Position numbers and translations under genes: made by a program. The notes under the pieces are model-generated. The model saw nothing but the letters and a program-made list of their open reading frames with translations, had not been told where the DNA came from and searched no databases. A stretch of DNA of 11,716 nt from a virus (lineage: Duplodnaviria; Heunggongvirae; Uroviricota; Caudoviricetes), in the IMG/VR virus record IMGVR_UViG_2675903352_000003, positions 1-11,716 of that record. One strand, given 5' to 3'. Position 1 is the stretch's first letter, and every line of letters begins with the position of its first letter. Positions 1-11,716 of the stretch are shown here, in pieces.

Positions 1-89
1 CGCCACGGGAATATCTACGGCAGCAGGCCAGTAATGGGTTAAGTGATAACAGGTGTCTGGAAATATAGGGGCAAATCCATATTAACAGT

Positions 90-965
90 ATGTTTGCTCG
101 CCTCTCAGGAGAGTTAAACGAGCTGGCGATATATGAGGCTAGCTATCAGTTAAGTCTGTTTGACTCTTTGCTTCCTGATTTTGTGGCGGATATTCATCCT
201 CTGATTGGTATCTCACCTGACACCCTTTATGCCGCTGCAATGGCGCGTCCATTTCAGGGAAGACTACTCAACGAATGGGCCTCAGACCTTGAAGCAGATC
301 GGATCAGGCGTATTACAAATACGGTACGTCAGGGTTTTTTGCTGGGTGATACCAATGAGCAGATCGCAAGAAAAATTCGTGGGCATGTCAGCAAGGGATT
401 TCAGGATGGTGCATTGCAGATGAGTCGAGCTAATGCGGGCAGTATTGTAAAAACAGCGGTTGGGCATCTTGCTGCTACTGCCCGTGAGAGTTTCGCCATG
501 GCAAACAATGATTTGATAAAGGGCAAACAATGGTTATCCACACTTGATAATCGTACTACACCACAGTGTCGAATCAGGGATCGCCTCAAATATACGCTGG
601 ATAATAAACCTATTGGTCACAAAGTACCTTATTTACAGGGGCCGGGAAAAATTCATTTCTGCTGCCGTTCAACAGAAACGTTTATTCTGAAATCTGCGAA
701 GGAACTGGGGATTGATGTTCGGGATGTTTCTCCTGCCGAGAGGGCAAGTATGGATGGGGTTGTAGCCGGAGATACGACTTACAAGGAATGGTTTTTGCGC
801 CAGTCTTATGCCAGGCAAAAACAAATAGTGGGAGAAACACGGGCAAAACTGATTCGTGATGGAGGTATGTCACCAGATGAATTTTACACCGATAAAGGTG
901 AATGGTTGACGCTGGGACAACTCCGTGAGCGTGATGCTCAGGCATTCAGAAAAGCCGGGATTTAA
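90..965 (+). CDS. phage head morphogenesis protein (Mu F / SPP1 gp7-like minor head protein), putative
   Basis: 291-aa ORF starting at the first ATG after an in-frame TAG at 66-68. It sits immediately upstream of a scaffold-like gene and the capsid gene. Cys-containing motifs (TTPQCRIRD ... KIHFCCRS) resemble the conserved Cys motifs I recall for the Phage_Mu_F family. No obvious Shine-Dalgarno, so it may be translationally coupled to an upstream gene ending in the first ~68 nt. Confidence 0.55.
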   Translation: MFARLSGELNELAIYEASYQLSLFDSLLPDFVADIHPLIGISPDTLYAAAMARPFQGRLLNEWASDLEADRIRRITNTVRQGFLLGDTNEQIARKIRGHVSKGFQDGALQMSRANAGSIVKTAVGHLAATARESFAMANNDLIKGKQWLSTLDNRTTPQCRIRDRLKYTLDNKPIGHKVPYLQGPGKIHFCCRSTETFILKSAKELGIDVRDVSPAERASMDGVVAGDTTYKEWFLRQSYARQKQIVGETRAKLIRDGGMSPDEFYTDKGEWLTLGQLRERDAQAFRKAGI

Positions 966-984
966 ATTAATTATTTATTACAAC

Positions 985-1012
985 AGGCTATCTTCGGGTG
1001 GCCTTTTTTATT
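985..1012 (+). terminator. intrinsic terminator-like hairpin with cUUCGg tetraloop
   Basis: Stem 985-992 (aggctatc) pairs with 997-1004 (ggtggcct): 8 bp including two G-U pairs. Loop ttcg at 993-996, followed by tttttatt at 1005-1012. Lies 20 nt after the stop of the upstream CDS. Confidence 0.5.
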
Positions 1013-1069
1013 GCTGCAATCTGGATAGTGAGCAGTGTAACAGTCGGAAGACTTAAATCAGGTATTAAT

Positions 1070-1834
1070 ATGAAACTGAAAACAGTAGAGATTAACGGAA
1101 AAAAATACGCAGAAATCGATACTGCTGGTCTGCCAGTTTATGTGCATGATGATGGTAAAGAAATCGGCTTCGATGCACCGCTGGCAGCCAGAAAAATTAC
1201 AGAACTTAATGGCGAGGCGAAAAATCATCGTCTGGCTAAAGAGGCCGCAGAGGAAAAACTTGCCAGGTTCGCTGCCATCGATGACCCGAAAAAGGCGATT
1301 GAGGCGCTGGAAATGCTGTCCAAAATTGACCAGAAAAAACTGATTGATGCGGGACAGGTTGACCAGGTTAAAGCAGAAATTACGAAAAATTTTCAGCAGC
1401 AATTAGACGAAGAAAAGCAACGCTCTCAGATGCTGGAGAAGCAGCTTTACGATTCCATGATTGGCGGTAGTTTTGCTGGTTCAAAATATATTGCCGATAA
1501 AATTGCGATCCCGGCAGATTTATTACAGGCCCGCTTCGGACAGTCATTCAAAGTGGAAGAAGGGAAGATCGTTGCTTATGACGCTTCCGGCAACAAAATT
1601 TACTCCCGCACGAAGCCAGGCGAACTGGCGCAGTTTGATGAGGCGCTGGAGTTCCTCGTCGAAAATTACCCTCAGAAAGACTACATCCTGAAAGCCAGTG
1701 GCAACAATGGTGGCGGCTCCCGTCCGACACAGCATGATATTGGTCAGAAAACGATGAAGCGATCAGCTTTTGATGCACTGGATGTTGCAGGTAAGCAAAA
1801 CGCACTGAAAGACGGTATCACTATCGTTGACTAA
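1070..1834 (+). CDS. putative scaffolding protein
   Basis: ORF track gives 998..1834 from a GTG, but that start lies inside the terminator hairpin. The first in-frame ATG is at 1070 (MKLKTVEING...), with AGG 7 nt upstream. The 254-aa product is K/E/Q-rich and predicted helical, and sits directly upstream of the capsid gene, as scaffolds typically do. Confidence 0.5.
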   Translation: MKLKTVEINGKKYAEIDTAGLPVYVHDDGKEIGFDAPLAARKITELNGEAKNHRLAKEAAEEKLARFAAIDDPKKAIEALEMLSKIDQKKLIDAGQVDQVKAEITKNFQQQLDEEKQRSQMLEKQLYDSMIGGSFAGSKYIADKIAIPADLLQARFGQSFKVEEGKIVAYDASGNKIYSRTKPGELAQFDEALEFLVENYPQKDYILKASGNNGGGSRPTQHDIGQKTMKRSAFDALDVAGKQNALKDGITIVD

Positions 1835-1933
1835 CACATTTTGCCAGTTCCTGGATGGGGACTGGCGTCAGGGCTGGATAGCTCACTACTCAATTCATTT
1901 ACAATTACGCAAAATTTTAAGGAATATTTAATT

Positions 1934-3073
1934 ATGGCTGGAAATACCCTGACCGGGTTGATCCCGACTATTTACACCGCCCTGGATGTTGTATCCCGTG
2001 AGCAGGTAGGTTTTATTCCTGCGGTAGCAAAAAACGCAAAAGCTGACGCTGCAGCAAAAGATCAAACGGTAACCGCGCCAGTTGCGCCTGATGCGAAAAC
2101 TGAAGATATCGTACCGGGCCCGTCAGCTCCGAATACTGGAGATCAAAATATTGGCACTGTTGATGTAAAAATTACTAAATCTAAAATGGCGCCAGTTAAA
2201 TGGAATGGTGAAGAACAACTGGCGCTTGGTCCTTCCGGGACTTACAACACCATTCTGGCTGATCAGTTCAAGCAAGCTTTTCGAGCACTTGCAAACGAGG
2301 TTGAGGCTGATCTTGGCGCACTGTATTTCGGTGCTTCTCGTGCTGTTGGGACCGCGGGGACAACGCCGTTTGGTGTTAAAGATGATCTTTCTGATGCGGC
2401 TCTGGCTCGTCAGATTCTGGAGGATAACGGGGCACCGACAACCGATTTACAGATGGTACTTGGCTCCACCGCTATTGCTAATTTGCGCGGAAAACAGTCC
2501 GTATTGTTTAAAGTGAATGAATCTGGCACTGAGCAGCTACTGCGCGAGGGTGTGTTGGGGCGCCTGGAGGGATTCAGTATTCACAGTTCGGCAGGTGTAA
2601 AACGAGTACCAAAAGCCACTGCAACTGGTTATCTTGTGAATGGTGAGAAGAAAGAAGGTGATGTTCTTATTTCCATTGATACTGGTTCGGGGAATATTTC
2701 GGCAGGGCAGATTGTTACTTTCGATGGCGATCCTAATCAGTATGTTGTGGCTGCTGCAACCAGTAATCTGATTACCCTTGCTGCACCAGGTCTACGTCAG
2801 GATCTGGCTGATGATACTGCAATCACGGTTGTCGGCTCATTTACTGCAAATATGGCGTTCGATCGCAACGCATTTCTGTTGGCATCCCGTACCCCGGCAA
2901 TGCCGGAGGGCGGCGATAGCGCTGATGATGTAATGAATGTTACGGACCCAATCTCGGGAATTACATTTCAGATTGCACTGTATCGTCAGTATCGTCAGGT
3001 ACGTTATGAAGTTGGGCTGGCATGGGGCGTTTCGTCAGTGAAACCTGCGCATAGCTGCCTGATTATTGGATAA
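1934..3073 (+). CDS. major capsid protein, putative
   Basis: ORF track gives 1841..3073 from a TTG. The in-frame ATG at 1934 (MAGNTLTG...) has AAGGA about 10 nt upstream and is the likelier start. The 379-aa product is Ala/Gly/Thr-rich, follows the scaffold gene, and is followed by a strong terminator hairpin. Assignment is by position and size, not by confirmed homology. Confidence 0.6.
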   Translation: MAGNTLTGLIPTIYTALDVVSREQVGFIPAVAKNAKADAAAKDQTVTAPVAPDAKTEDIVPGPSAPNTGDQNIGTVDVKITKSKMAPVKWNGEEQLALGPSGTYNTILADQFKQAFRALANEVEADLGALYFGASRAVGTAGTTPFGVKDDLSDAALARQILEDNGAPTTDLQMVLGSTAIANLRGKQSVLFKVNESGTEQLLREGVLGRLEGFSIHSSAGVKRVPKATATGYLVNGEKKEGDVLISIDTGSGNISAGQIVTFDGDPNQYVVAAATSNLITLAAPGLRQDLADDTAITVVGSFTANMAFDRNAFLLASRTPAMPEGGDSADDVMNVTDPISGITFQIALYRQYRQVRYEVGLAWGVSSVKPAHSCLIIG

Positions 3074-3077
3074 AATC

Positions 3078-3102
3078 AAAAAGGGGCTTCGGTCCCTTTT
3101 TT
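3078..3102 (+). terminator. intrinsic terminator with cUUCGg tetraloop
   Basis: Stem 3078-3087 (aaaaaggggc) pairs with 3092-3101 (gtcccttttt): 10 bp with one G-U. Loop ttcg at 3088-3091, with a T-run through 3102. Begins 5 nt after the capsid stop codon (3071-3073). Confidence 0.7.
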
Positions 3103-3114
3103 AATGGAGGGTAT

Positions 3115-3339
3115 ATGGCTGGATTGACTAAAGATCAAAGAGCACAGCGTGATGCCGCGCAAAAAAATGCAGTGTCGGAGCGGAAGGCGGCGCAAACCAG
3201 GGAACCACAAAAAACACCGATTAAGTTGGTAGTTATGATGACCGAGAATCAGATATTCCCCGGTGCCCCAACAATCGCTAATGTTCATCCTGATGAAGTT
3301 GACAATTGGAAGGCGCTGGGCTGGAAAACACAGGAGTAG
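3115..3339 (+). CDS. hypothetical small protein (74 aa), function unknown
   Basis: ATG at 3115 with GGAGG at 3106-3110. Its stop at 3337-3339 is 4 nt before the next gene start. N-terminal half is highly charged and K/Q/A-rich (TKDQRAQRDAAQKNAVSERKAAQTREPQK). I recognise no motif. Confidence 0.5.
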   Translation: MAGLTKDQRAQRDAAQKNAVSERKAAQTREPQKTPIKLVVMMTENQIFPGAPTIANVHPDEVDNWKALGWKTQE

Positions 3340-3342
3340 CGC

Positions 3343-3738
3343 ATGATCACTTACGTTACCTGTGATGATGTTGATAATACGCTTGGGAAAAACTGGGCGA
3401 ATGAGGATGTTAAAAATAAAGCGGTTTTAATGGCCAATGCCTGGTTGAATAACTTTAGTCTGAAGGTTGATCCATCCAGTATTCCTGACGAGGTAAAGCT
3501 CGCTGGAGCATATGCTGCCAGAGTCGCTTCTGTAGGTAAGTTATTTCAGCAGAAAAATGATTCTGGTGTTGTTATAAATAAAACTGTGTCGGCTGATGGG
3601 GTTAGTGTATCGAAATCATTTGCTGAATTATCAGCAAACAGCACTGCATTGCTTGAGCCCGATTTACAGCTTGCGCTGGCGCTGCTGAAACCGTACGGAC
3701 TGAGTCACTCACAAGTCAGGGTTGTGAGGGGGGGATGA
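3343..3738 (+). CDS. head-tail connector / adaptor protein (gp6-like), putative
   Basis: 131-aa ORF with AGGAG at 3332-3336 six nt upstream of the ATG. Size and position (first of the neck genes after the capsid) fit a head-tail adaptor. Its stop overlaps the next start (ATGA at 3735-3738). Confidence 0.45.
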   Translation: MITYVTCDDVDNTLGKNWANEDVKNKAVLMANAWLNNFSLKVDPSSIPDEVKLAGAYAARVASVGKLFQQKNDSGVVINKTVSADGVSVSKSFAELSANSTALLEPDLQLALALLKPYGLSHSQVRVVRGG

Positions 3739-4115
3739 TGGGGATTCGTGATGAGATTCAGGATGAGGTTGCCGCTGCTTTTGATGGTGATTTAGCTGAT
3801 GCGGTGAATAATTTTTCTGGTTCTTACGTTACGCACCAGGGGTGGGAGCCTGTGACGGAGACAGGCCGCGAACTTACAACAACATATACCGGACGAGGTG
3901 TGTTGGCACGCTATAAGCTTGGCAGAGTTGATGGAATTAATATTTTGCACGGCGACCTTAAGTTAACTGCTCTGGCCTGTGAGGTTACGGATAAACCTGC
4001 TATCGGACATATTATTGAGACTTATGATCCTGTATCAAGGCAGTTACAACGATACGAGATAATTACAGTACATGTAGATCCTTCCGCATCGGTTTATTCT
4101 ATCCAGTTAAGGTGA
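3735..4115 (+). CDS. head-tail joining / head closure protein, putative
   Basis: 126-aa ORF whose start overlaps the upstream stop (ATGA), with a G-rich SD (gaggggggg) upstream. Position in the neck gene block. Confidence 0.4.
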   Translation: MMGIRDEIQDEVAAAFDGDLADAVNNFSGSYVTHQGWEPVTETGRELTTTYTGRGVLARYKLGRVDGINILHGDLKLTALACEVTDKPAIGHIIETYDPVSRQLQRYEIITVHVDPSASVYSIQLR

Positions 4116-4121
4116 AAGTAA

Positions 4122-4502
4122 ATGGCAAAGGCATGGGATCTGGAACCGTCAATATTTGTTGGGATGATTGAGGAAGATGTGGGACTGAAAATTCGCTACA
4201 TCGCTATTCAGATTCTTACAGCTATTGATATTGCCGCTCCGGTTGATACCGGGCGTTTCAGAAATAATAATCTGGTATCGTTACAGCACCCAGATTTTAG
4301 TATATCTGATAATGTGGATCCGAATGGCACGATTGCACTTCAACGTGGAATCGGGGTTATTTCAAAAGCGGCGAATTACGGAATCATCTACATCCAGAAT
4401 AACCTGCCTTATGCCGAATCTATTGAGGATGGACATTCTCAACAAGCGCCAACAGGTGTGTATGCTAATGCTTTTAATGGTGTTTCGCAGATTTATAAAT
4501 GA
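4122..4502 (+). CDS. HK97 gp10-like neck/tail-component protein, putative
   Basis: 126-aa ORF with AGGTGA SD about 7 nt upstream. Contains a DTGRFRNN motif resembling the DTG-x-LR-x-S signature I recall for the HK97 gp10 family. Its stop overlaps the next start (ATGA at 4499-4502). Confidence 0.5.
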   Translation: MAKAWDLEPSIFVGMIEEDVGLKIRYIAIQILTAIDIAAPVDTGRFRNNNLVSLQHPDFSISDNVDPNGTIALQRGIGVISKAANYGIIYIQNNLPYAESIEDGHSQQAPTGVYANAFNGVSQIYK

Positions 4503-4891
4503 CTTTTACTGAAATCAGAAATGCTGTTATTTCCAGAATGACGGCACAGACGGTTATTGATGGAAAAGATGTATTATATCCAAACGGGCCAACATTCGAT
4601 CCGTCAGGTAAGTTAATCTGGGCGCGGTTAAGTGATATCCCCGGTCTGGCTGGGACTAATGAAATTGGTGCGGGTCCGGTTGTTTATCGCACGGGGATAA
4701 TTATTATTCAGTTATTTGTTCCCGCAGGCTCTGGCTCAAAACTTATTACTGAGACGGCGGATAAATTGCGAGAATTGTTTGAATTTCAGGATGATGATCG
4801 TCTCAGCTACCAGGCTGTTTCCTCAATAGCCGTTGGTGAAAAGAATGGCTGGTTCCAGCTTAATCTTCAAATTCCATATCGAGCGCTCTAG
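4499..4891 (+). CDS. tail terminator / tail completion protein (gpU-like), putative
   Basis: 130-aa ORF immediately upstream of the major tail gene, with ATGA start-stop overlap to the upstream gene. Size and position fit a tail terminator. Confidence 0.45.
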   Translation: MTFTEIRNAVISRMTAQTVIDGKDVLYPNGPTFDPSGKLIWARLSDIPGLAGTNEIGAGPVVYRTGIIIIQLFVPAGSGSKLITETADKLRELFEFQDDDRLSYQAVSSIAVGEKNGWFQLNLQIPYRAL

Positions 4892-4917
4892 CGCAATTAA
4901 TGACATAGGAGGCTCCT

Positions 4918-5880
4918 GTGAGTTCAGGTGCAAAGGTTATCTCGGCATTTATCCGGGAGACAATTGCAGGCACCACGCCAGCTAGTGGTGACTGGAGTTT
5001 ATTAAAGCGCACAAGCTGGGGAGTAAAACCAACCCAGAATAAAGGCGAAAATAATGAGATCGGTGGTTCTCGTATGGCTCAGGGGGCGACGCCTGGCACT
5101 GTGGATGTCGGCGGTGATGTTGGTACCAAATTTCGCTGGGGCCAACATGATGATTTCCTTGCATCCTGTTTCGGCGCGGAATGGTCAGGAGATTCTCTGA
5201 CTATGGGGAATGAGCGAATAACATTTTCTCTGGCAACATATGCGTCAGATGTAGGAATTGCCTCTGTCGTCAGGGGGGCACAGGTTGGATCGTGGAAAAT
5301 GCAGATTCCTAACGACGGTGATATTACTGCGACAGTCACTTTTGCCGGGCTGGACTGGGAATCAAAGGCCGATGATACAAATTTTATCAAAGGCGAGCCT
5401 GTAGATAGTGCAGGAAAGTTACGTTATTCGTTTAAGGAAGTTTCAGCAGTAAGTCTGAATGGTGTTGCCGGAGGTAACGGTTTTTGTATCGACAGCTTTG
5501 ATATCCAGTTCGATAACAAACTTCAGACCCAGCGTTGTGTCGGGACTGGTTCTCCTTATGCAGGAGCAAATATTCCGACTACTTTTACACCGTCCGGTAC
5601 GGTGACGCTTTCATGGTCTAAAGCCGCGTGGGAAATCTGGAGTAAAACATTAACTGGAGAAACAGTTCCGTTCAGCTTCACGCTTTCGAATGGAGAGGGG
5701 GCATATACTTTCAGTTTCCCGAAGGTTCAGATATCAGGTGAATGGCCTGACGGCGGTAATACCGATATTATCCAGGTCCAGTTGAGTATTACCGCTGCTG
5801 ATGAAGCGCCAACTATCACCAGAAAAAAAGCTTCCCCGGCTGCAGTGATTGCAAAAGCCAGTGCTGAGTCGATTAGTTGA
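4918..5880 (+). CDS. major tail protein, putative
   Basis: 320-aa ORF starting at GTG 4918, with a perfect AGGAGG at 4907-4912 five nt upstream. Gly/Thr/Ser-rich, and located directly upstream of the G / G-T chaperone pair as major tail genes are in siphoviruses. Confidence 0.6.
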   Translation: MSSGAKVISAFIRETIAGTTPASGDWSLLKRTSWGVKPTQNKGENNEIGGSRMAQGATPGTVDVGGDVGTKFRWGQHDDFLASCFGAEWSGDSLTMGNERITFSLATYASDVGIASVVRGAQVGSWKMQIPNDGDITATVTFAGLDWESKADDTNFIKGEPVDSAGKLRYSFKEVSAVSLNGVAGGNGFCIDSFDIQFDNKLQTQRCVGTGSPYAGANIPTTFTPSGTVTLSWSKAAWEIWSKTLTGETVPFSFTLSNGEGAYTFSFPKVQISGEWPDGGNTDIIQVQLSITAADEAPTITRKKASPAAVIAKASAESIS

Positions 5881-5940
5881 TTTTCCGTTATTCCCCCTGT
5901 GGTATTGCGCTACAGGGTGGTGTTTTGAATGAGGTTATAG

Positions 5941-6492
5941 ATGTTTATTCTTGAACAGAAAACTATCATCGGTGGAGAACGCTGGTTTACGCCAATGAAG
6001 GACTTAGAACCTATTGCTGGGTTACAACTGTTGGTGGCAAGCAGTGATAATGATCAGTATCGCTCCCGTAATGCATTAATCCGTCGCCACATTGAGAAAA
6101 TGGATGCCAGTTTGCATGTCGGAACGAAGGCGTTTGATATTGCAAAGGTCGTCGAGGTGGACTCTGTTGATGATTTACTCATTGATAACGCCGCTCGTTA
6201 TCTGCTGAAAGACTGGAAAGGGGTTGGAGAGCTGGTAGATGGTGTTGAGGTCGCGCTGGAATATACACCAGAAAGAGGTGCTGCGCTGCTCAAGCAGAAT
6301 CCAGAGTTGTACTGGCAAATCCTTGCAGAAGCCGCCAGAATCGCCCAGGGAAAAGAGCAGCAAAAGCAGGATACGATAAAAAAGCCATTGCCGCCCAGCG
6401 GTGGATATCGGAGTTCGGGGGAGAAAAGGGTGAAAAGGCAAGGTGGAAACGAGAAAAGCTCAGATTGCCGCCGCTCCCGGAGCCAGAAATAG
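5941..6492 (+). CDS. tail assembly chaperone (lambda gpG analogue)
   Basis: 183-aa ORF with GAGG SD about 6 nt upstream of ATG 5941. It lies immediately upstream of the tape measure gene and contains an A_AAA_AAG slippery heptamer near its 3' end. Its last 108 nt overlap an open -1 frame that continues to 6698. Confidence 0.7.
   Translation: MFILEQKTIIGGERWFTPMKDLEPIAGLQLLVASSDNDQYRSRNALIRRHIEKMDASLHVGTKAFDIAKVVEVDSVDDLLIDNAARYLLKDWKGVGELVDGVEVALEYTPERGAALLKQNPELYWQILAEAARIAQGKEQQKQDTIKKPLPPSGGYRSSGEKRVKRQGGNEKSSDCRRSRSQK
6378..6384 (+). promoter_or_regulatory. programmed -1 ribosomal frameshift slippery heptamer A_AAA_AAG (G to G-T)
   Basis: In the G frame the codons are ata(6376) aaa(6379) aag(6382), so 6378-6384 reads A AAA AAG in X_XXY_YYZ register. 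The -1 frame is open from 6249 through 6695. Confidence 0.6.
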
Positions 6493-6698
6493 ACCCGGTT
6501 ATTAGGGAATTGTTGTACGCCTATTCGGTGATATCCCGTGCCCGGCGTTATGCTGGAATGGCTGGGGTGCCTTTGCCTTTATCTCTGTCAGAGATAAATG
6601 AATATTTAGCCACTCATCCGGTATTGATTGAGCGCGATGAATTTGAAGCAGTGATCTTTGCACTGGATGACCAGTATTTTCAGGAGCAGTGTGTGTAG
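6384..6698 (+). CDS. T segment of the G-T tail assembly chaperone fusion, expressed by -1 frameshift from G
   Basis: The -1 frame relative to G is open from the slip site to TAG at 6696-6698. It has no credible independent start (ORF track uses TTG 6465 with no SD). The arrangement matches the conserved G / G-T pair upstream of tape measure genes. Predicted fusion is about 252 aa (148 from G plus 104). Confidence 0.55.
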   Translation, partial: AIAAQRWISEFGGEKGEKARWKREKLRLPPLPEPEIDPVIRELLYAYSVISRARRYAGMAGVPLPLSLSEINEYLATHPVLIERDEFEAVIFALDDQYFQEQCV

Positions 6699-6818
6699 TT
6701 GTTAATTACGTACACTCTGTTACAGAGATGTGATAGTGTCTTTAATTAAATCGATGATGCTCCTGGAGAAAAGCATTGCGTGGCCTCGTAATCGCTATAT
6801 CTACTATTATGTCGCCTG

Positions 6819-6846
6819 AAACCCACTTCGGTGGGTTTTTTTGTTG
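6819..6846 (+). terminator. intrinsic terminator with cUUCGg tetraloop
   Basis: Perfect 8-bp stem, 6819-6826 (aaacccac) with 6831-6838 (gtgggttt). Loop ttcg at 6827-6830, followed by ttttg ttg. Lies in the 164-bp spacer between T and H, 17 nt upstream of the H start codon. Confidence 0.7.
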
Positions 6847-6862
6847 TCAGGAGTTTTAATAA

Positions 6863-9800
6863 ATGGCAGAGCAGACCTCACGTCTTGCAATAATTATTGA
6901 TAGCTCTGGAGCGAAAAATAATGCTGATAATCTGACCTCATCATTAGTCAAAATGACGCAGGCCGGGGAAACTGCTGCAAATAGCGCAGGGAAAGTGACT
7001 AAGGCAACAGAAGACGAGAAGAACGCGCTCGCAAAATTAAAAGCAGCTATTGATCCAGTTGGTGCCGCAATTGATACTGTCGGTCGACGCTATTCTGAAT
7101 TAAAGAAATATTTCGATAAAGGGCTTATTGATAAAGAAGAATATGAATTTCTTGCCCGTAAACTTAATGAAACCACAGAGGAATTGAGCGGGGTTGCGCA
7201 AGCGCAGAGAGAGGCCGAGAAGGCCGGAAAACTTGCTGCCGCCCAGCAGGAAGCGCAGGCTCAGGCCTTTCAAAGAATGCTGGACAAGATCGACCCTCTG
7301 GCTGCGGCGCTAAGAAATCTTGATCAACAGCAGGATGAACTTAATGCTGCACTTTTTTCCGGGAAAATAAATGGCTCTCAGTTTGATAATTACAGCCGAA
7401 AAATACAGGAAACGCGGCGAGAGCTAACAGGAGAGGCTCAGGCAGAACGAGAAGCAGCAAAAGCGCATGATGAACAAGTTGCTGCTTTGCAACGTCTGAT
7501 TGCTCAACTCGATCCTGTTGGAACAGCTTTTAACCGCCTGACAGAGCAGCAAAAGCAACTCAGCGAAGCAAAAGCCAAGGGGATGCTTTCTCCTGAAATG
7601 TATGAGGAGCTTTCAGGAAAACTCCATGCTATGCGGAGTGAGCTTGAGGCTACTCAATCGCAACTCAGCAAAACCGGAATGTCAGCAAAACAAACGGCTT
7701 TTGCTATGCGCATGTTGCCTGCACAAATGACGGATATTGTTGTTGGGTTGTCCACTGGTCAGTCGCCATTTATGGTGTTAATGCAGCAGGGCGGCCAGCT
7801 AAAAGATATGTTCGGTGGGATTGGCCCGGCGATCAAAGGTGTTGGTTCTTATGTGCTGGGATTAATTAATCCTTTTACCCTGGCCGCAGCAGCCGTTGGC
7901 GCCTTGGGGCTAGCTTACTATAAAGGTTCTCAGGAGCAGGACGAATTTAATAAATCTCTTATTCTTACCGGAAATCAGTTGGGGACAACCAGCGGGCAAT
8001 TAGCCGATATAGCTCAACGTGCCGGGGATGCTGCTGATTCGACAACTGGCGCTGCGGCGGCAGTATTAAACCAGCTTGTGCGTTCGGGAAAGGTCGCGAG
8101 CAGTTCGCTGGAGCAGGTGACGACAGCGATAGTAAAAACGAGCGAATTAACTGGAATATCGACCGATCAACTGGTTAATAATTTCAATGAAATTGCAAAG
8201 GATCCTGTCAGTGCCATATCAAAACTTAATGATCAGTACCATTTTCTGACACTGGCGACTTATAACCAGATTAAGGCGCTACAGGATGAAGGGAACCAGC
8301 AGGAGGCGGCCCGCATTGCGACAGAAGCATACTCATCCTCAATGATCCAGCGCACCAACCAGATTAAAGAAAATCTTGGTTATCTTGAGACTGCATGGAA
8401 AGCTGTCGCAGACTCCGCAAAATGGGCATGGGATTCCATGCTGGATATTGGCCGTGAGGCCTCCCTTGATCAAAAAATCTCAGATGTTCTCCGTCAAATT
8501 GATGAAATAGAAAAAAATACCCGACCCGGAGTTTTCGGGTTAGGTGGCATTGGAGATGGCGGAGCTCAAAATAAAAGGCTGGCACGATTAAAGCAGCAAT
8601 TGGGCGTACTTCAAGCAGAAAAAATTGCTCAGGACGTACTAAATTCATCAATAAACGATTACAACAAGCGACAACAGGAAGGAATTGAACTCAGACAGAG
8701 AGCAGATGCCTTTTCAAAACAATATCAGACCCGGGAGCAGCAGAGAGCTAGTGAACTTGCAAAACTGGAAAAACTAAAGAGTCAGTATTCAAAGGAAGAA
8801 TATAATAATCTTATCGCTCAAATAAATGAGCGTTATAAAGATCCAAAGCAACCAAAGGCGAAAGGTTATTCGGATGATGCAGCCCAACGAATGATTGATC
8901 ATCTGAATCAACAGAATGCGTTACTAAGTTCACAAACTGAATTAACCGTTAAATTAAGTTCCTCTGAACAGGAACTGGTTAAGTGGCGTCAGCAGATTGC
9001 CGACCTGGAGTCACGACCGTCATCAAAATTAACTAAGGATCAGAAATCGCTTCTCTTACACCGGGAAGAAATAACCGCGTTGATGGAGAAAAATGTTGCG
9101 ATTGAAAAAAATAACAGGCTAATCAAGGAGTCAGCCGAAATAGCCGCATGGCGTAGTTCATTGCAGGCTTCTATTGATAATCATCAGCAGGGGTATGACA
9201 TTCAGATCGCTGGTTATGGACTTGGCGATAAAAATCAGCAACGTCAGCAGGAATTACTGCGGATTGAACGTGAATATAACAACCGGCGTCTGCAACTTGA
9301 ACGTGACTATGCGGATAAATCTCGTGGAATGTCTGAACGTGTTTTTCAGGAAAAAATACAGGTCCTGAATGATGCTGTGGAGCGGGAAAAAGAAATTATC
9401 AGGCAGAAAAATGAGCAGCTCGATATTCAGGCTGGAGACTGGGTAAGTGGGGCGTCCCAAGGATTCAATAACTGGTTGGATAACACTAAGGATATCAGCG
9501 GGCAGATAAAATCAACCACGACTCAGATGTTTGATGGGATGACAGATGCGCTTGGTGATTTTGTCACGACAGGTAAGGCAAATTTTCGTTCTTTCGCTAC
9601 CTCCGTGATTTCAGATCTTAGCAGAATAGCATTAAAGGCTTCAATTACCGGGATTTTCGACAGCATTAGCAACAGTTCTTCTGGGGGAATTTTAGGAACT
9701 ATCGGAAGTGCTGTTAGTAAATTTATTCCTAATGCAAAGGGCGGTATTTATGAGTCTCCATCATTGAGTACATATTCAAACGGTATTTATGATTCCCCGC

Positions 9801-10096
9801 AATTTTTTGCTTTTGCAAAAGGTGCTGGTGTTTTTGGTGAGGCTGGACCGGAAGCTATTATGCCATTAACACGAACTTCCGATGGTTCTCTTGGTGTCAG
9901 GGCGATTAATAATAAAGGCGGTAATGGAGGCGGAGACATTAATTACTCTCCTGTATATCAAATTACTATCAAAAATGACGGACAGAATGGAGAGATTGGC
10001 CCTCAGGCAATTAGAACACTTATGGGAATGGTTGATCAGCGAGTGCAGGGCACTTTGTTAAATATGCGACGTGATGGAGGAATGTTAAGTGGCTGA
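6863..10096 (+). CDS. H: tail tape measure protein (lambda gpH homologue)
   Basis: 1077-aa ORF with AGGAG at 6849-6853 nine nt upstream of the ATG. It contains [39 protein letters not shown], which I recognise as matching the conserved segment of lambda H ([11 protein letters not shown]...GGQSPW..LQQGGQVKDSFGG), and a C-terminus [13 protein letters not shown]...[10 protein letters not shown] matching lambda H NDGTNGQIGPAAL...MRDGGLFSG. Long central charged coiled-coil-like region. Confidence 0.95.
7046..7672 (+). repeat. three tandem divergent copies of a ~70-80-aa module in the N-terminal region of the tape measure protein (protein-level repeat)
   Basis: Translated copies align: [23 protein letters not shown]...[30 protein letters not shown]; [24 protein letters not shown]...[29 protein letters not shown]; [24 protein letters not shown]...[28 protein letters not shown]. 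The DNA copies are diverged, so the duplication is old. Confidence 0.6.
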
Positions 10097-10421
10097 AGAA
10101 TTCCACTGGTTACCAGAGGATGGAATGAAAACAGAAAATAAACCATCGATAAAAACTGTAAGATTTGGCGATGGTTATGAGCAACGAAGTCCAAATGGAC
10201 TTAATCATTCTCTACGTGTTTTCACCTGTGATTTCAAGGTTGAGGCGAATGAACGTGATTCATTCGAAAATTTTTTAGCACGGCATGGAGGCTATAAATC
10301 TTTTTTTTGGCGTCCACCTGGTGTTAACAGAAAAATCAGAGTGGTGTGTCGAACGTGGTCAGCTACAGAACATATCACCTATACCGATTTTTCGTGTCAG
10401 TTTGATGAAGTGGTGATCTGA
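10089..10421 (+). CDS. M: minor tail protein M (lambda gpM homologue)
   Basis: 110-aa ORF starting at GTG 10089, with GGAGG at 10076-10080 eight nt upstream; it overlaps the end of H by 8 nt. The N-terminus [28 protein letters not shown] aligns with lambda M as I recall it (KTFRWKVKPGMDVASVPSVRKVRFGDGY), and size matches lambda M (109 aa). Divergent from lambda overall. Confidence 0.85.
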
Positions 10422-11119
10422 TGCAGGATATCCGGCAGGAAACACTGAATGAGTGTACAAAAGCGGAGCAATCCGCGCTGATCGTGCTCTGGGAAGTCGA
10501 TCTGACAGAGGTCGGCGGAGAGCGTTATTTTTTCTGTAATGAGCAGAACGAAAAAGACGAACCAGTCACCTGGCAGGGGCGGCAGTATCAGGCGTACCCC
10601 ATTCAGGGGAGCGGATTTGAGATGAACGGTAAAGGAGCCAGCGCCAGGCCAACTCTGAAAGTCTCTAATCTGCACGGCATGGTCACCGGGATGGTGGAAG
10701 ATTTGCAGAGTCTGGTCGGCGGAACGGTGGTCAGGCGTAAGGTTTACGCCCGTTTTCTGGATGCGGTGAACTTCGTCAACGGAAACATCGAGGCAGACCC
10801 GGAGCAGGAGGCGATCAGCCGCTGGCGCATCGAGCAGTGCAGCGAACTGAGCGCGGTCAGTGCCTCCTTTGTGCTCTCCACACCGACGGAAACGGACGGC
10901 ACTGTTTTTCCGGGACGTATCATGCTGGCCAACACCTGCACCTGGACCTATCGCGGCGATGAGTGCGGTTATAGCGGTCCGGCGGTCGCGGATGAATATG
11001 ACCAGCCAACGTCCGATATCACGAAGGATAAATGCAGCAAATGCCTGAGTGGCTGTAAGTTCCGCAATAACGTCGCCAACTTTGGCGGCTTCCTTTCCAT
11101 TAACAAACTTTCGCAGTAA
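10421..11119 (+). CDS. L: minor tail protein L (lambda gpL homologue), C-terminal Cys cluster
   Basis: 232-aa ORF. Its ATG overlaps the M stop by 1 nt (tgATG). [12 protein letters not shown]...VGGERYFFCNEQNEK...GRIMLANTCTWTYRGDECGYSGP...KDKCSKCLSGCKFRNN matches lambda gpL almost residue-for-residue from memory, with the same length. The C-terminal cysteines correspond to the reported iron-sulfur cluster ligands of lambda gpL. Confidence 0.95.
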   Translation: MQDIRQETLNECTKAEQSALIVLWEVDLTEVGGERYFFCNEQNEKDEPVTWQGRQYQAYPIQGSGFEMNGKGASARPTLKVSNLHGMVTGMVEDLQSLVGGTVVRRKVYARFLDAVNFVNGNIEADPEQEAISRWRIEQCSELSAVSASFVLSTPTETDGTVFPGRIMLANTCTWTYRGDECGYSGPAVADEYDQPTSDITKDKCSKCLSGCKFRNNVANFGGFLSINKLSQ

Positions 11120-11123
11120 ACCC

Positions 11124-11716
11124 ATGACAGAAACAGAATCAGCGATTCTGGCGCACGCCCGGCGATGTGCGCCAGCGGAGTCGTGCGGCTTCGTGGTGAG
11201 AACGCCGGAGGGAGAAAGATATTTTCCCTGCGTGAATATCTCCGGTGAGCCGGAGGATTATTTCAGGCTGTCGACGGAGGACTGGCTGCAGGCAGAAATG
11301 CAGGGGGAGATTGTGGCGCTGGTCCACAGCCACCCCGGTGGTCTGCCCTGGCTGAGTGAGGCTGACCGGCGGCTGCAGGTGCAGAGTGATTTGCCGTGGT
11401 GGCTGGTCTGCCGGGGTGAGATTCACAAGTTCCGCTGTGTGCCACATCTTACCGGGCGGCGCTTTGAACACGGGGTGACGGACTGTTACACGCTGTTCCG
11501 GGACGCTTACCATCTGGCGGGAATTGAGATGCCGGATTTTCACCGCGGGGATGACTGGTGGCGTAACGGTCAGAATCTCTATCTGGATAATCTGGAGGCC
11601 ACAGGGCTGTATCAGGTGCCGTTGTCAGCGGCGCAGCCGGGCGATGTGCTGCTGTGCTGTTTTGGTTCATCGGTGCCGAATCATGCCGCCATTTACTGTG
11701 GTGACGGCGAGCTGCT
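11124..11716 (+). CDS. K: tail assembly protein K (lambda gpK homologue), 3'-truncated by window end
   Basis: ATG at 11124, 4 nt after the L stop, open to the window end (not in the ORF track because no stop is reached). Translation MTETESAILAHARRCAPAESCGFVV...EIVALVHSHPGGLPWLSEADRR...GVTDCYTLFRDAYHLAG carries a JAMM/MPN-type motif (HSHPGG...SEAD) followed by an NlpC/P60-like Cys (DCYTLF), as in lambda K. Confidence 0.9.
   Translation, partial: MTETESAILAHARRCAPAESCGFVVRTPEGERYFPCVNISGEPEDYFRLSTEDWLQAEMQGEIVALVHSHPGGLPWLSEADRRLQVQSDLPWWLVCRGEIHKFRCVPHLTGRRFEHGVTDCYTLFRDAYHLAGIEMPDFHRGDDWWRNGQNLYLDNLEATGLYQVPLSAAQPGDVLLCCFGSSVPNHAAIYCGDGEL

Follow-up and report, generated by a model that had tools for sequence, protein, structure and literature searches.

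The small gene and its product

The window analysed here, positions 1 to 11,716 (in nucleotides, nt) of the viral record IMGVR_UViG_2675903352_000003 (Caudoviricetes), is a lambdoid prophage head-tail module of Escherichia coli/Escherichia albertii. Between the gene for its P22-type major capsid (coat) protein and the gene for its head-tail adaptor Ad1 lies a small open reading frame (ORF; 3115..3339, plus strand), which starts with ATG, encodes 74 amino acids (aa) and ends with a stop codon at 3337-3339. The small ORF is a genuine conserved prophage gene under purifying selection. Its product matches PHROG 1514 with E = 1.4e-33, residues 1-74 aligning with profile positions 1-58 of 58, and in comparisons with four relatives the ratio of nonsynonymous to synonymous substitution rates is 0.13-0.33 over the C-terminal 39 codons. 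Substitutions fall mostly in third codon positions of the plus frame (4/0/11 in the comparison with SPF_0923), a pattern that rules out an overlapping minus-strand ORF of 70 aa (3076..3288). In RefSeq, the closest E. coli genome has the small ORF annotated as a coding sequence.

The sequence-only reading of this stretch had taken the ORF as probably real, with a good Shine-Dalgarno (SD) sequence and tight packing against its neighbours. Reality and SD are borne out, as GGAGGG stands 3 nt before the ATG. The packing holds on the adaptor side, where 3 nt separate the stop codon from the Ad1 start (3343); on the other side, a 41-nt spacer with a hairpin follows the coat stop codon (3071-3073). 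A profile search, one of the checks that had been proposed, matched no connector or known decoration family, only PHROG 1514, which is unannotated, and the protein has no Pfam match at E <= 1. Overall, that reading is partly supported.

The segments of the small protein are listed in Table 1. It is secure that the protein consists of two conserved ends and a connector of freely varying length. The consensus at the N-terminus is MAGLTK.QRAQR.A in the alignment of close homologues, where M1, A2, G3, L4, T5, Q8, R9, A10, R12 and A14 are invariant. Structure prediction, also proposed earlier and here run with AlphaFold, gives residues 6-27 as a helix, at moderate confidence (predicted local distance difference test, pLDDT, 60-70). 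The linker is predicted to be disordered, with pLDDT below 50 at residues 27-30, and Tandem Repeats Finder detects no tandem repeat in the window's own linker.

The C-terminal end carries the conserved block LVVM.T....FPGAPTIANVHPDEVDNWKALGWKTQE in the same alignment and folds, according to AlphaFold, into a confident beta-beta-alpha-beta mini-domain, with a pLDDT of 93.9 when modelled alone from a 56-sequence alignment and about 90 in the full-length model. M41, P52, A55, V57, H58, P59, E61, V62, G69 and W70 are near-invariant over 125 diverse members. The mini-domain is acidic; its net charge averages -3.2 over the family. An earlier description of the N-terminal half as charged and of low complexity, and of the C-terminal half as more hydrophobic, is thus correct, the latter half being the conserved folded domain. 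The invariant His and Asn raised the idea of a ββα-metal/HNH nuclease, which was dropped: BFVD hits had E of about 0.6 or worse, Pfam offered no support, and the domain is acidic.

The PHROG 1514 family

How widespread is the family? A word-indexed search gave close homologues in 31 enterobacterial clusters, and an exhaustive profile search extended this to 320 representatives (50% identity), which come from many lineages of bacteria. All of the 125 diverse representatives tested belong to PHROG 1514, and in none of them does Pfam cover the family core. Among deposited phage genomes, 16 of 50,697 contain the mini-domain, so that the family is found mostly in prophages and uncultured phages. 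One of its carriers is the lambdoid laboratory phage HK639, where the family gene is gp07 and has the same position as in the window. This position is kept from Escherichia phages to a phage deposited as Microcystis phage Me-ZS1. The Me-ZS1 member (L007, 3827-4120; E = 4e-22) has a Pro/Ala/Thr-rich linker and lies beside a P22-type coat gene; either the family is wide or the host assignment needs a check.

Architecture was surveyed in 144 representatives, and the mini-domain was detected in 143. It is C-terminal in 103, where 14-135 aa (median 35) precede it, and N-terminal with a following tail in 20, while 10 proteins consist of hardly more than the mini-domain. A MAG[LI][ST]K start is present in 35. 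In about 10 of the 144 (roughly 7%), a HeH/Rho_N-like module takes the place of the N-terminal helix; HeH is a motif of a DNA-binding class. The window protein has no HeH module. In one database protein, P0033 (223 aa), a ParB/Srx-like N-terminal domain is joined to an entire 58-aa small protein; this is probably no functional architecture but a fusion by deletion in a prophage that has decayed (L002, described below, has a ynaK remnant for comparison).

Across the family, A, E, D, P and Q abound in the linkers, which can be as short as about 5 or longer than 130 residues. Klebsiella- and Escherichia-type relatives encode theirs by a microsatellite of perfect in-frame 9-nt repeats, e.g. GAACAGCAG in 13 copies and GCACCGCAG in 26.9 copies, both 100% identical. 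Such linkers are seen at L187 (3256-3497) and L183 (3268-3384), and also at L056, L089, L109 and L161; the repeat types in relatives include APQ, EQQ(Q), poly-Q, PVE and EPQ. Copy numbers run from 0 to about 27 or more among otherwise similar loci, and these wide differences between similar prophages imply ongoing slippage.

No functional data were found in the literature for HK639, gpFI-like proteins, HI1506/YqbF, capsid-adjacent HeH proteins or family-carrying phages, and no virion proteomics or cryo-electron microscopy for any phage that carries the family; several literature matches for 'gpFI' were in fact gpFII. The family is uncharacterised and its function is inferred, and the near-invariant motif ADVHPDEV makes its recognition easy.

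Linkage to the P22-type coat gene

A degenerate DNA pattern for ADVHPDEV, scanned over viral contigs, gave 120 loci, and the motif lies inside a true domain ORF at 119 of these. The remaining one (L085) is a chance match within an unrelated protein of 687 aa. Of the 98 loci where the upstream gene could be called, 85 have a homologue of the window coat protein as the same-strand upstream ORF. A window-type adaptor follows in only 25 of the 108 loci that carry the small gene.

Sampling in reverse, with loci picked by similarity of their coat protein, leads to the same association. At coat identities of at least 76%, the small gene lies directly downstream in 57 of 59 loci; of the two exceptions, one is at a contig end and the other is a truncated coat match. 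At identities of 53-60%, a mini-domain is detectable in about 6 of 21. It is secure that the small protein belongs to the head module and is inherited together with one coat type.

What occupies the slot elsewhere? Loci without a detectable domain usually have short modular proteins there, several of them with HeH. Distant slot proteins (L198, L204, L211, Pm86 ORF60, Acinetobacter qsb1, Caulobacter DMCA and Vibrio SSP002) were tried as family members and rejected; the best E-value was 0.3, and they are therefore treated as positional analogues only. In Pm86 ORF60 of a Pasteurella phage (L130, 3703-3939), a short N-terminal beta-hairpin-like segment precedes a HeH module (Pfam HeH, E = 2e-8). 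The slot protein of Acinetobacter phage qsb1 (L128, 3689-4102), annotated as 'LEM-like domain protein', is likewise made of a beta-hairpin-like segment and HeH. These two phages have related coat proteins, and their slot proteins may be remote kin of PHROG 1514 or of FluMu gp35. Several distant relatives have instead, directly after the coat gene, a gene for an HNH/homing-endonuclease-like protein of 228-309 aa (L210, 3192-3878; L214, 3218-4072; L132, 3866-4795, which is gp18 of Salicola phage CGphi29).

The intergenic hairpin

The 41-nt spacer behind the coat gene holds a hairpin with a folding energy of -12.7 kcal/mol (z = -3.2 compared with shuffled sequences), which a scanner flags as terminator-like. 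It is either a terminator-like or an mRNA-stabilising element, and it is present at the equivalent position in all five relatives checked (L001, L003, L005, L006 and L007). The E-FI spacer of lambda (L004, 2162-2202) is also 41 nt long, with a UUCG hairpin followed by an SD, and the T-gp35 spacer of Mu (L134, 4557-4622) has a GC-rich hairpin followed by an SD. Such a post-capsid hairpin may set the ratio of coat to downstream expression or stabilise the coat mRNA. Because it divides the small gene from the coat gene, and because only 3 nt lie between the small gene and the neck genes, expression of the small gene appears to be grouped with the low-copy neck genes and not with the coat protein.

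Comparison with other post-capsid proteins

Lambda gpFI is the only characterised occupant of the post-capsid slot. Its C-terminal domain binds the coat protein, and gpFI promotes the initiation of packaging by bridging the prohead and the terminase-DNA complex; suppressors that bypass it lie in both the terminase and the capsid genes (PMC13595911). The arrangement is shared with the window: capsid gene, 41-nt spacer with UUCG hairpin, SD, small gene and head-tail joining genes (E, FI and FII in lambda). Also shared are a helical N-terminus, a hydrophilic flexible linker and a small folded C-terminal domain (in the window protein as modelled by AlphaFold; PDB 2LSM covers gpFI residues 72-132), together with docking on the coat shell, which for the window protein is putative. 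The two differ in size, the 74 aa of the window protein being about half of the 132 aa of gpFI, and in coat partner, which is gpE in lambda and of the P22 type in the window. They differ further in that the N-terminal module of PHROG 1514 does not co-vary with terminase type. Similarity to PF14000 (Packaging_FI) or lambda FI was not detected, with an hhalign probability of 0.2-0.3%, no Pfam match and no detectable similarity in fold, and an iterative hidden Markov model search from the family never picks up any of 115 FI sequences.

A second comparison is with Mu gp35 and the Haemophilus FluMu protein HI1506 (PF17891 plus HeH; PDB 2OUT). These occupy the slot between the major head protein and adaptor (gp36) genes, with a hairpin before it, and have a small N-terminal domain, a linker and a HeH module, as do the HeH-bearing members of PHROG 1514. 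Their HeH stands at the end of the protein; the window protein has none, and the order of domains is reversed in most PHROG 1514 members. No FluMu_N match was obtained for the window protein or for 125 relatives (hhalign probability 0.6%). A HeH profile built from family members was compared with lambda FI, itself a weak SAP match, and gave E = 0.25, which is not significant; the result for Mu gp35, which also has a HeH-type module, was likewise not significant. Pm86 ORF60, an analogue by slot, has a HeH that matches 2OUT (E = 0.003). The small protein resembles gpFI and the FluMu_N proteins but cannot be filed under either family.

Possible roles in head assembly

What might such a protein do? 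The reading given the highest probability, roughly 0.37, is that of a coat-shell-docking tether in head assembly or packaging, similar in role to gpFI. The acidic C-terminal mini-domain would dock on the shell of the P22-type coat protein encoded just upstream, and the flexible linker, whose length would be uncritical, would bear the conserved amphipathic N-terminal helix as a second interaction module. Procapsids might be coated transiently, as they are by lambda gpFI, and a late step of head formation would be aided, either productive engagement of the packaging complex with the prohead or head completion; the protein would not be a neck ring protein. The notion of a tether stems from the conservation of both ends while linker length and repeats vary. 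A gpFI-like role is favoured because gpFI itself occupies the slot, as do the Mu gp35/HI1506 proteins, which end in HeH. Also in its favour are the gpFI-like three-part architecture, the HeH modules of some relatives and the packing of the gene against the neck genes beyond the hairpin. Docking on the coat is supported by the coat gene, which stays upstream while the adaptor type changes. We infer both the binding of the mini-domain to the coat shell and a role in packaging or assembly over one in virion stabilisation.

Several points weigh against this reading. None of the tests run gives support for homology with gpFI or gp35. Lineages that share portal (69% identity) and coat (76%) but have unrelated large terminases carry almost the same N-terminal helix, so that the partner of the helix is not terminase-specific; co-variation with the terminase, expected of a gpFI-like bridge, thus gave a negative result. 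Family members that have only the domain indicate that the mini-domain has a function of its own. Length variation by microsatellites would also fit an exposed virion protein.

This last point leads to the main alternative, a virion cement or decoration protein, which is a serious rival, if a somewhat less probable one. Here the mini-domain would stabilise the mature capsid lattice, and linker and helix would form a flexible bristle whose reach is changed by repeat slippage. Strict co-inheritance with the coat gene, the domain-only members and the independence of the N-terminal helix from terminase type are all consistent with it, and exposed, fast-varying proteins typically have such perfect microsatellite linkers. 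The window head module has no prohead protease among its PHROG matches, and a P22-type shell without covalent cross-links could gain from a cement. Proteins of this kind, such as lambda gpD, phage L Dec, T4 Soc and SPP1 gp12, are also small, encoded in head modules and partnered with the coat lattice, and SPP1 gp12 has a repetitive segment of variable length. Known cement proteins are, however, larger and usually trimeric, whereas the folded unit of the window protein is a much smaller, acidic and monomeric domain of 39 residues, and searches showed no resemblance in sequence or fold to any known decoration protein. The hairpin between the small gene and the coat gene and the packing against low-copy neck genes speak against a cement, and the HeH of some relatives is hard to explain on a capsid exterior.

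An accessory role at the portal vertex or in head completion, as a low-copy plug, a DNA-retention factor or a helper in recruiting the adaptor during or after packaging, is unlikely. Its attractions are the distance of 3 nt from Ad1, the packing with neck genes and the conservation of the portal between lineages that share the N-terminal motif. The small protein stays, however, where the adaptor type switches, and in every lineage its gene goes with the coat gene. The four genes that follow it encode separately all four canonical neck proteins (PHROGs 493, 161, 169 and 179), as expected from the earlier view of the ORF as an extra gene beside the usual four, and the product matches none of the connector families (Ad1, Hc1, Neck1 and tail terminator). 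A neck protein proper is rejected.

A small gene with no Pfam match and no annotated function might also be a moron or accessory gene outside morphogenesis, serving for example in anti-defence or host modulation. This suggestion of the sequence-only reading does not hold up and is highly improbable: no promoter-like site was detected 5' of the small ORF, its GC content of 0.489 lies within the 0.42-0.49 of its neighbours, the gene is nearly always present beside its coat type, and its position is conserved as far as phage Me-ZS1. PHROG 1514 is the only PHROG family matched (PADLOC was not scanned).

Least probable of all is that -1 frameshifting extends the coat protein at its C-terminus, a mechanism put forward for certain Listeria and lactococcal phages (for MCP3, according to the TP901-1 paper). 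Seen from the coat gene, the small ORF does lie in the -1 frame, which is open from 3055, and a hairpin follows the coat stop. But no slippery heptamer lies in 3055-3070, the upstream in-frame stretch is short and unconserved in relatives, and the ORF starts at an ATG of its own behind a strong SD, with an invariant Met-Ala-Gly N-terminus.

Genomic setting

The features of the window are collected in Table 1. Behind the tube gene come tail chaperones, the tape measure and lambda M/L-like tail-tip genes.

Table 1. Positions of the small gene, its protein segments and the neighbouring genes in the window
Feature	Position	Strand	Evidence or remark
Minor head protein	90-965
DUF6651 scaffold	1070-1834
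Major capsid (coat) protein, P22-coat type	1931-3073	+	PHROG 283 major head protein, E = 3.9e-135; Pfam P22_CoatProtein, E = 4.4e-13
Hairpin: 10-bp stem, UUCG loop, then U-run, between coat gene and small ORF	3078..3102	+	RNAfold
Shine-Dalgarno sequence GGAGGG	3106-3111	+	Read from the sequence; 3 nt 5' of ATG
Small ORF, 74 aa	3115-3339	+	PHROG 1514 (family without annotated function)
N-terminal helix motif MAGLTKDQRAQRDAAQK, residues 1-17	3115..3165	+	Conserved among close homologues
Variable charged linker, residues 18-35	3166..3219	+	16-aa indel between 74-aa and 58-aa forms
C-terminal beta-beta-alpha-beta mini-domain IKLVVMMTENQIFPGAPTIANVHPDEVDNWKALGWKTQE, 39 residues	3220..3336	+
Ad1 head-tail adaptor, next gene, 3 nt 3' of small ORF	3343-3738	+	PHROG 493, E = 2.2e-46
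Hc1	3735-4115
Neck1	4122-4502
Tail terminator	4499-4891
Tube protein	4918-5880

Two overlapping ORFs (5941..6492 and 6465..6698) separate the tube gene from the tape-measure gene, where one usually finds the G/GT pair of tail assembly chaperones, a product of -1 frameshifting. The closest match to the window is a prophage of E. coli MEI003, with 98.6% identity, and 681 complete E. coli genomes contain at least 80% of the window. In the MEI003 prophage (L002), the counterpart of the ORF at 5941..6492 is annotated as 'truncated'. The large terminase of this prophage is a pseudogene that has an HNH endonuclease gene at its truncated 5' end (8094-10381), because of which the prophage is probably defective. 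A trkG gene and a ynaK remnant lie upstream in a Rac-like arrangement, and behind the tail fibre genes are genes for the type III secretion system effectors NleG, a HECT-type E3 ligase and NleC (30311-34570).

Significance

Few parts of phage head modules go unannotated as consistently as the small post-capsid genes, and lambda gpFI is the sole such protein with a defined role, the mechanism of which is still debated. A large family is now delimited by the ADVHPDEV motif, by a genomic rule (directly after a P22-type coat gene), by a confident mini-fold and by a tether of variable length. For annotation, 'coat-associated head accessory protein' can replace 'hypothetical', and the labels neck protein, decoration protein and moron are to be avoided for the small gene. 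With gp07 of HK639, the function of a small post-capsid protein becomes directly testable outside lambda, and the natural linker-length variants offer a ready series for models of tethering.

More tentatively, PHROG 1514 could be a previously unrecognised class of capsid-docking tethers for the P22-type coat shells of siphophages, anchored to the shell by the 39-residue mini-domain, with a microsatellite-encoded linker whose slippage sets the reach of a second module, an amphipathic helix or HeH. If this is true, the family would represent, depending on its site of action, a non-homologous answer to the task of gpFI, which is to bring the packaging complex to the one portal vertex, or else a virion surface bristle of variable length.
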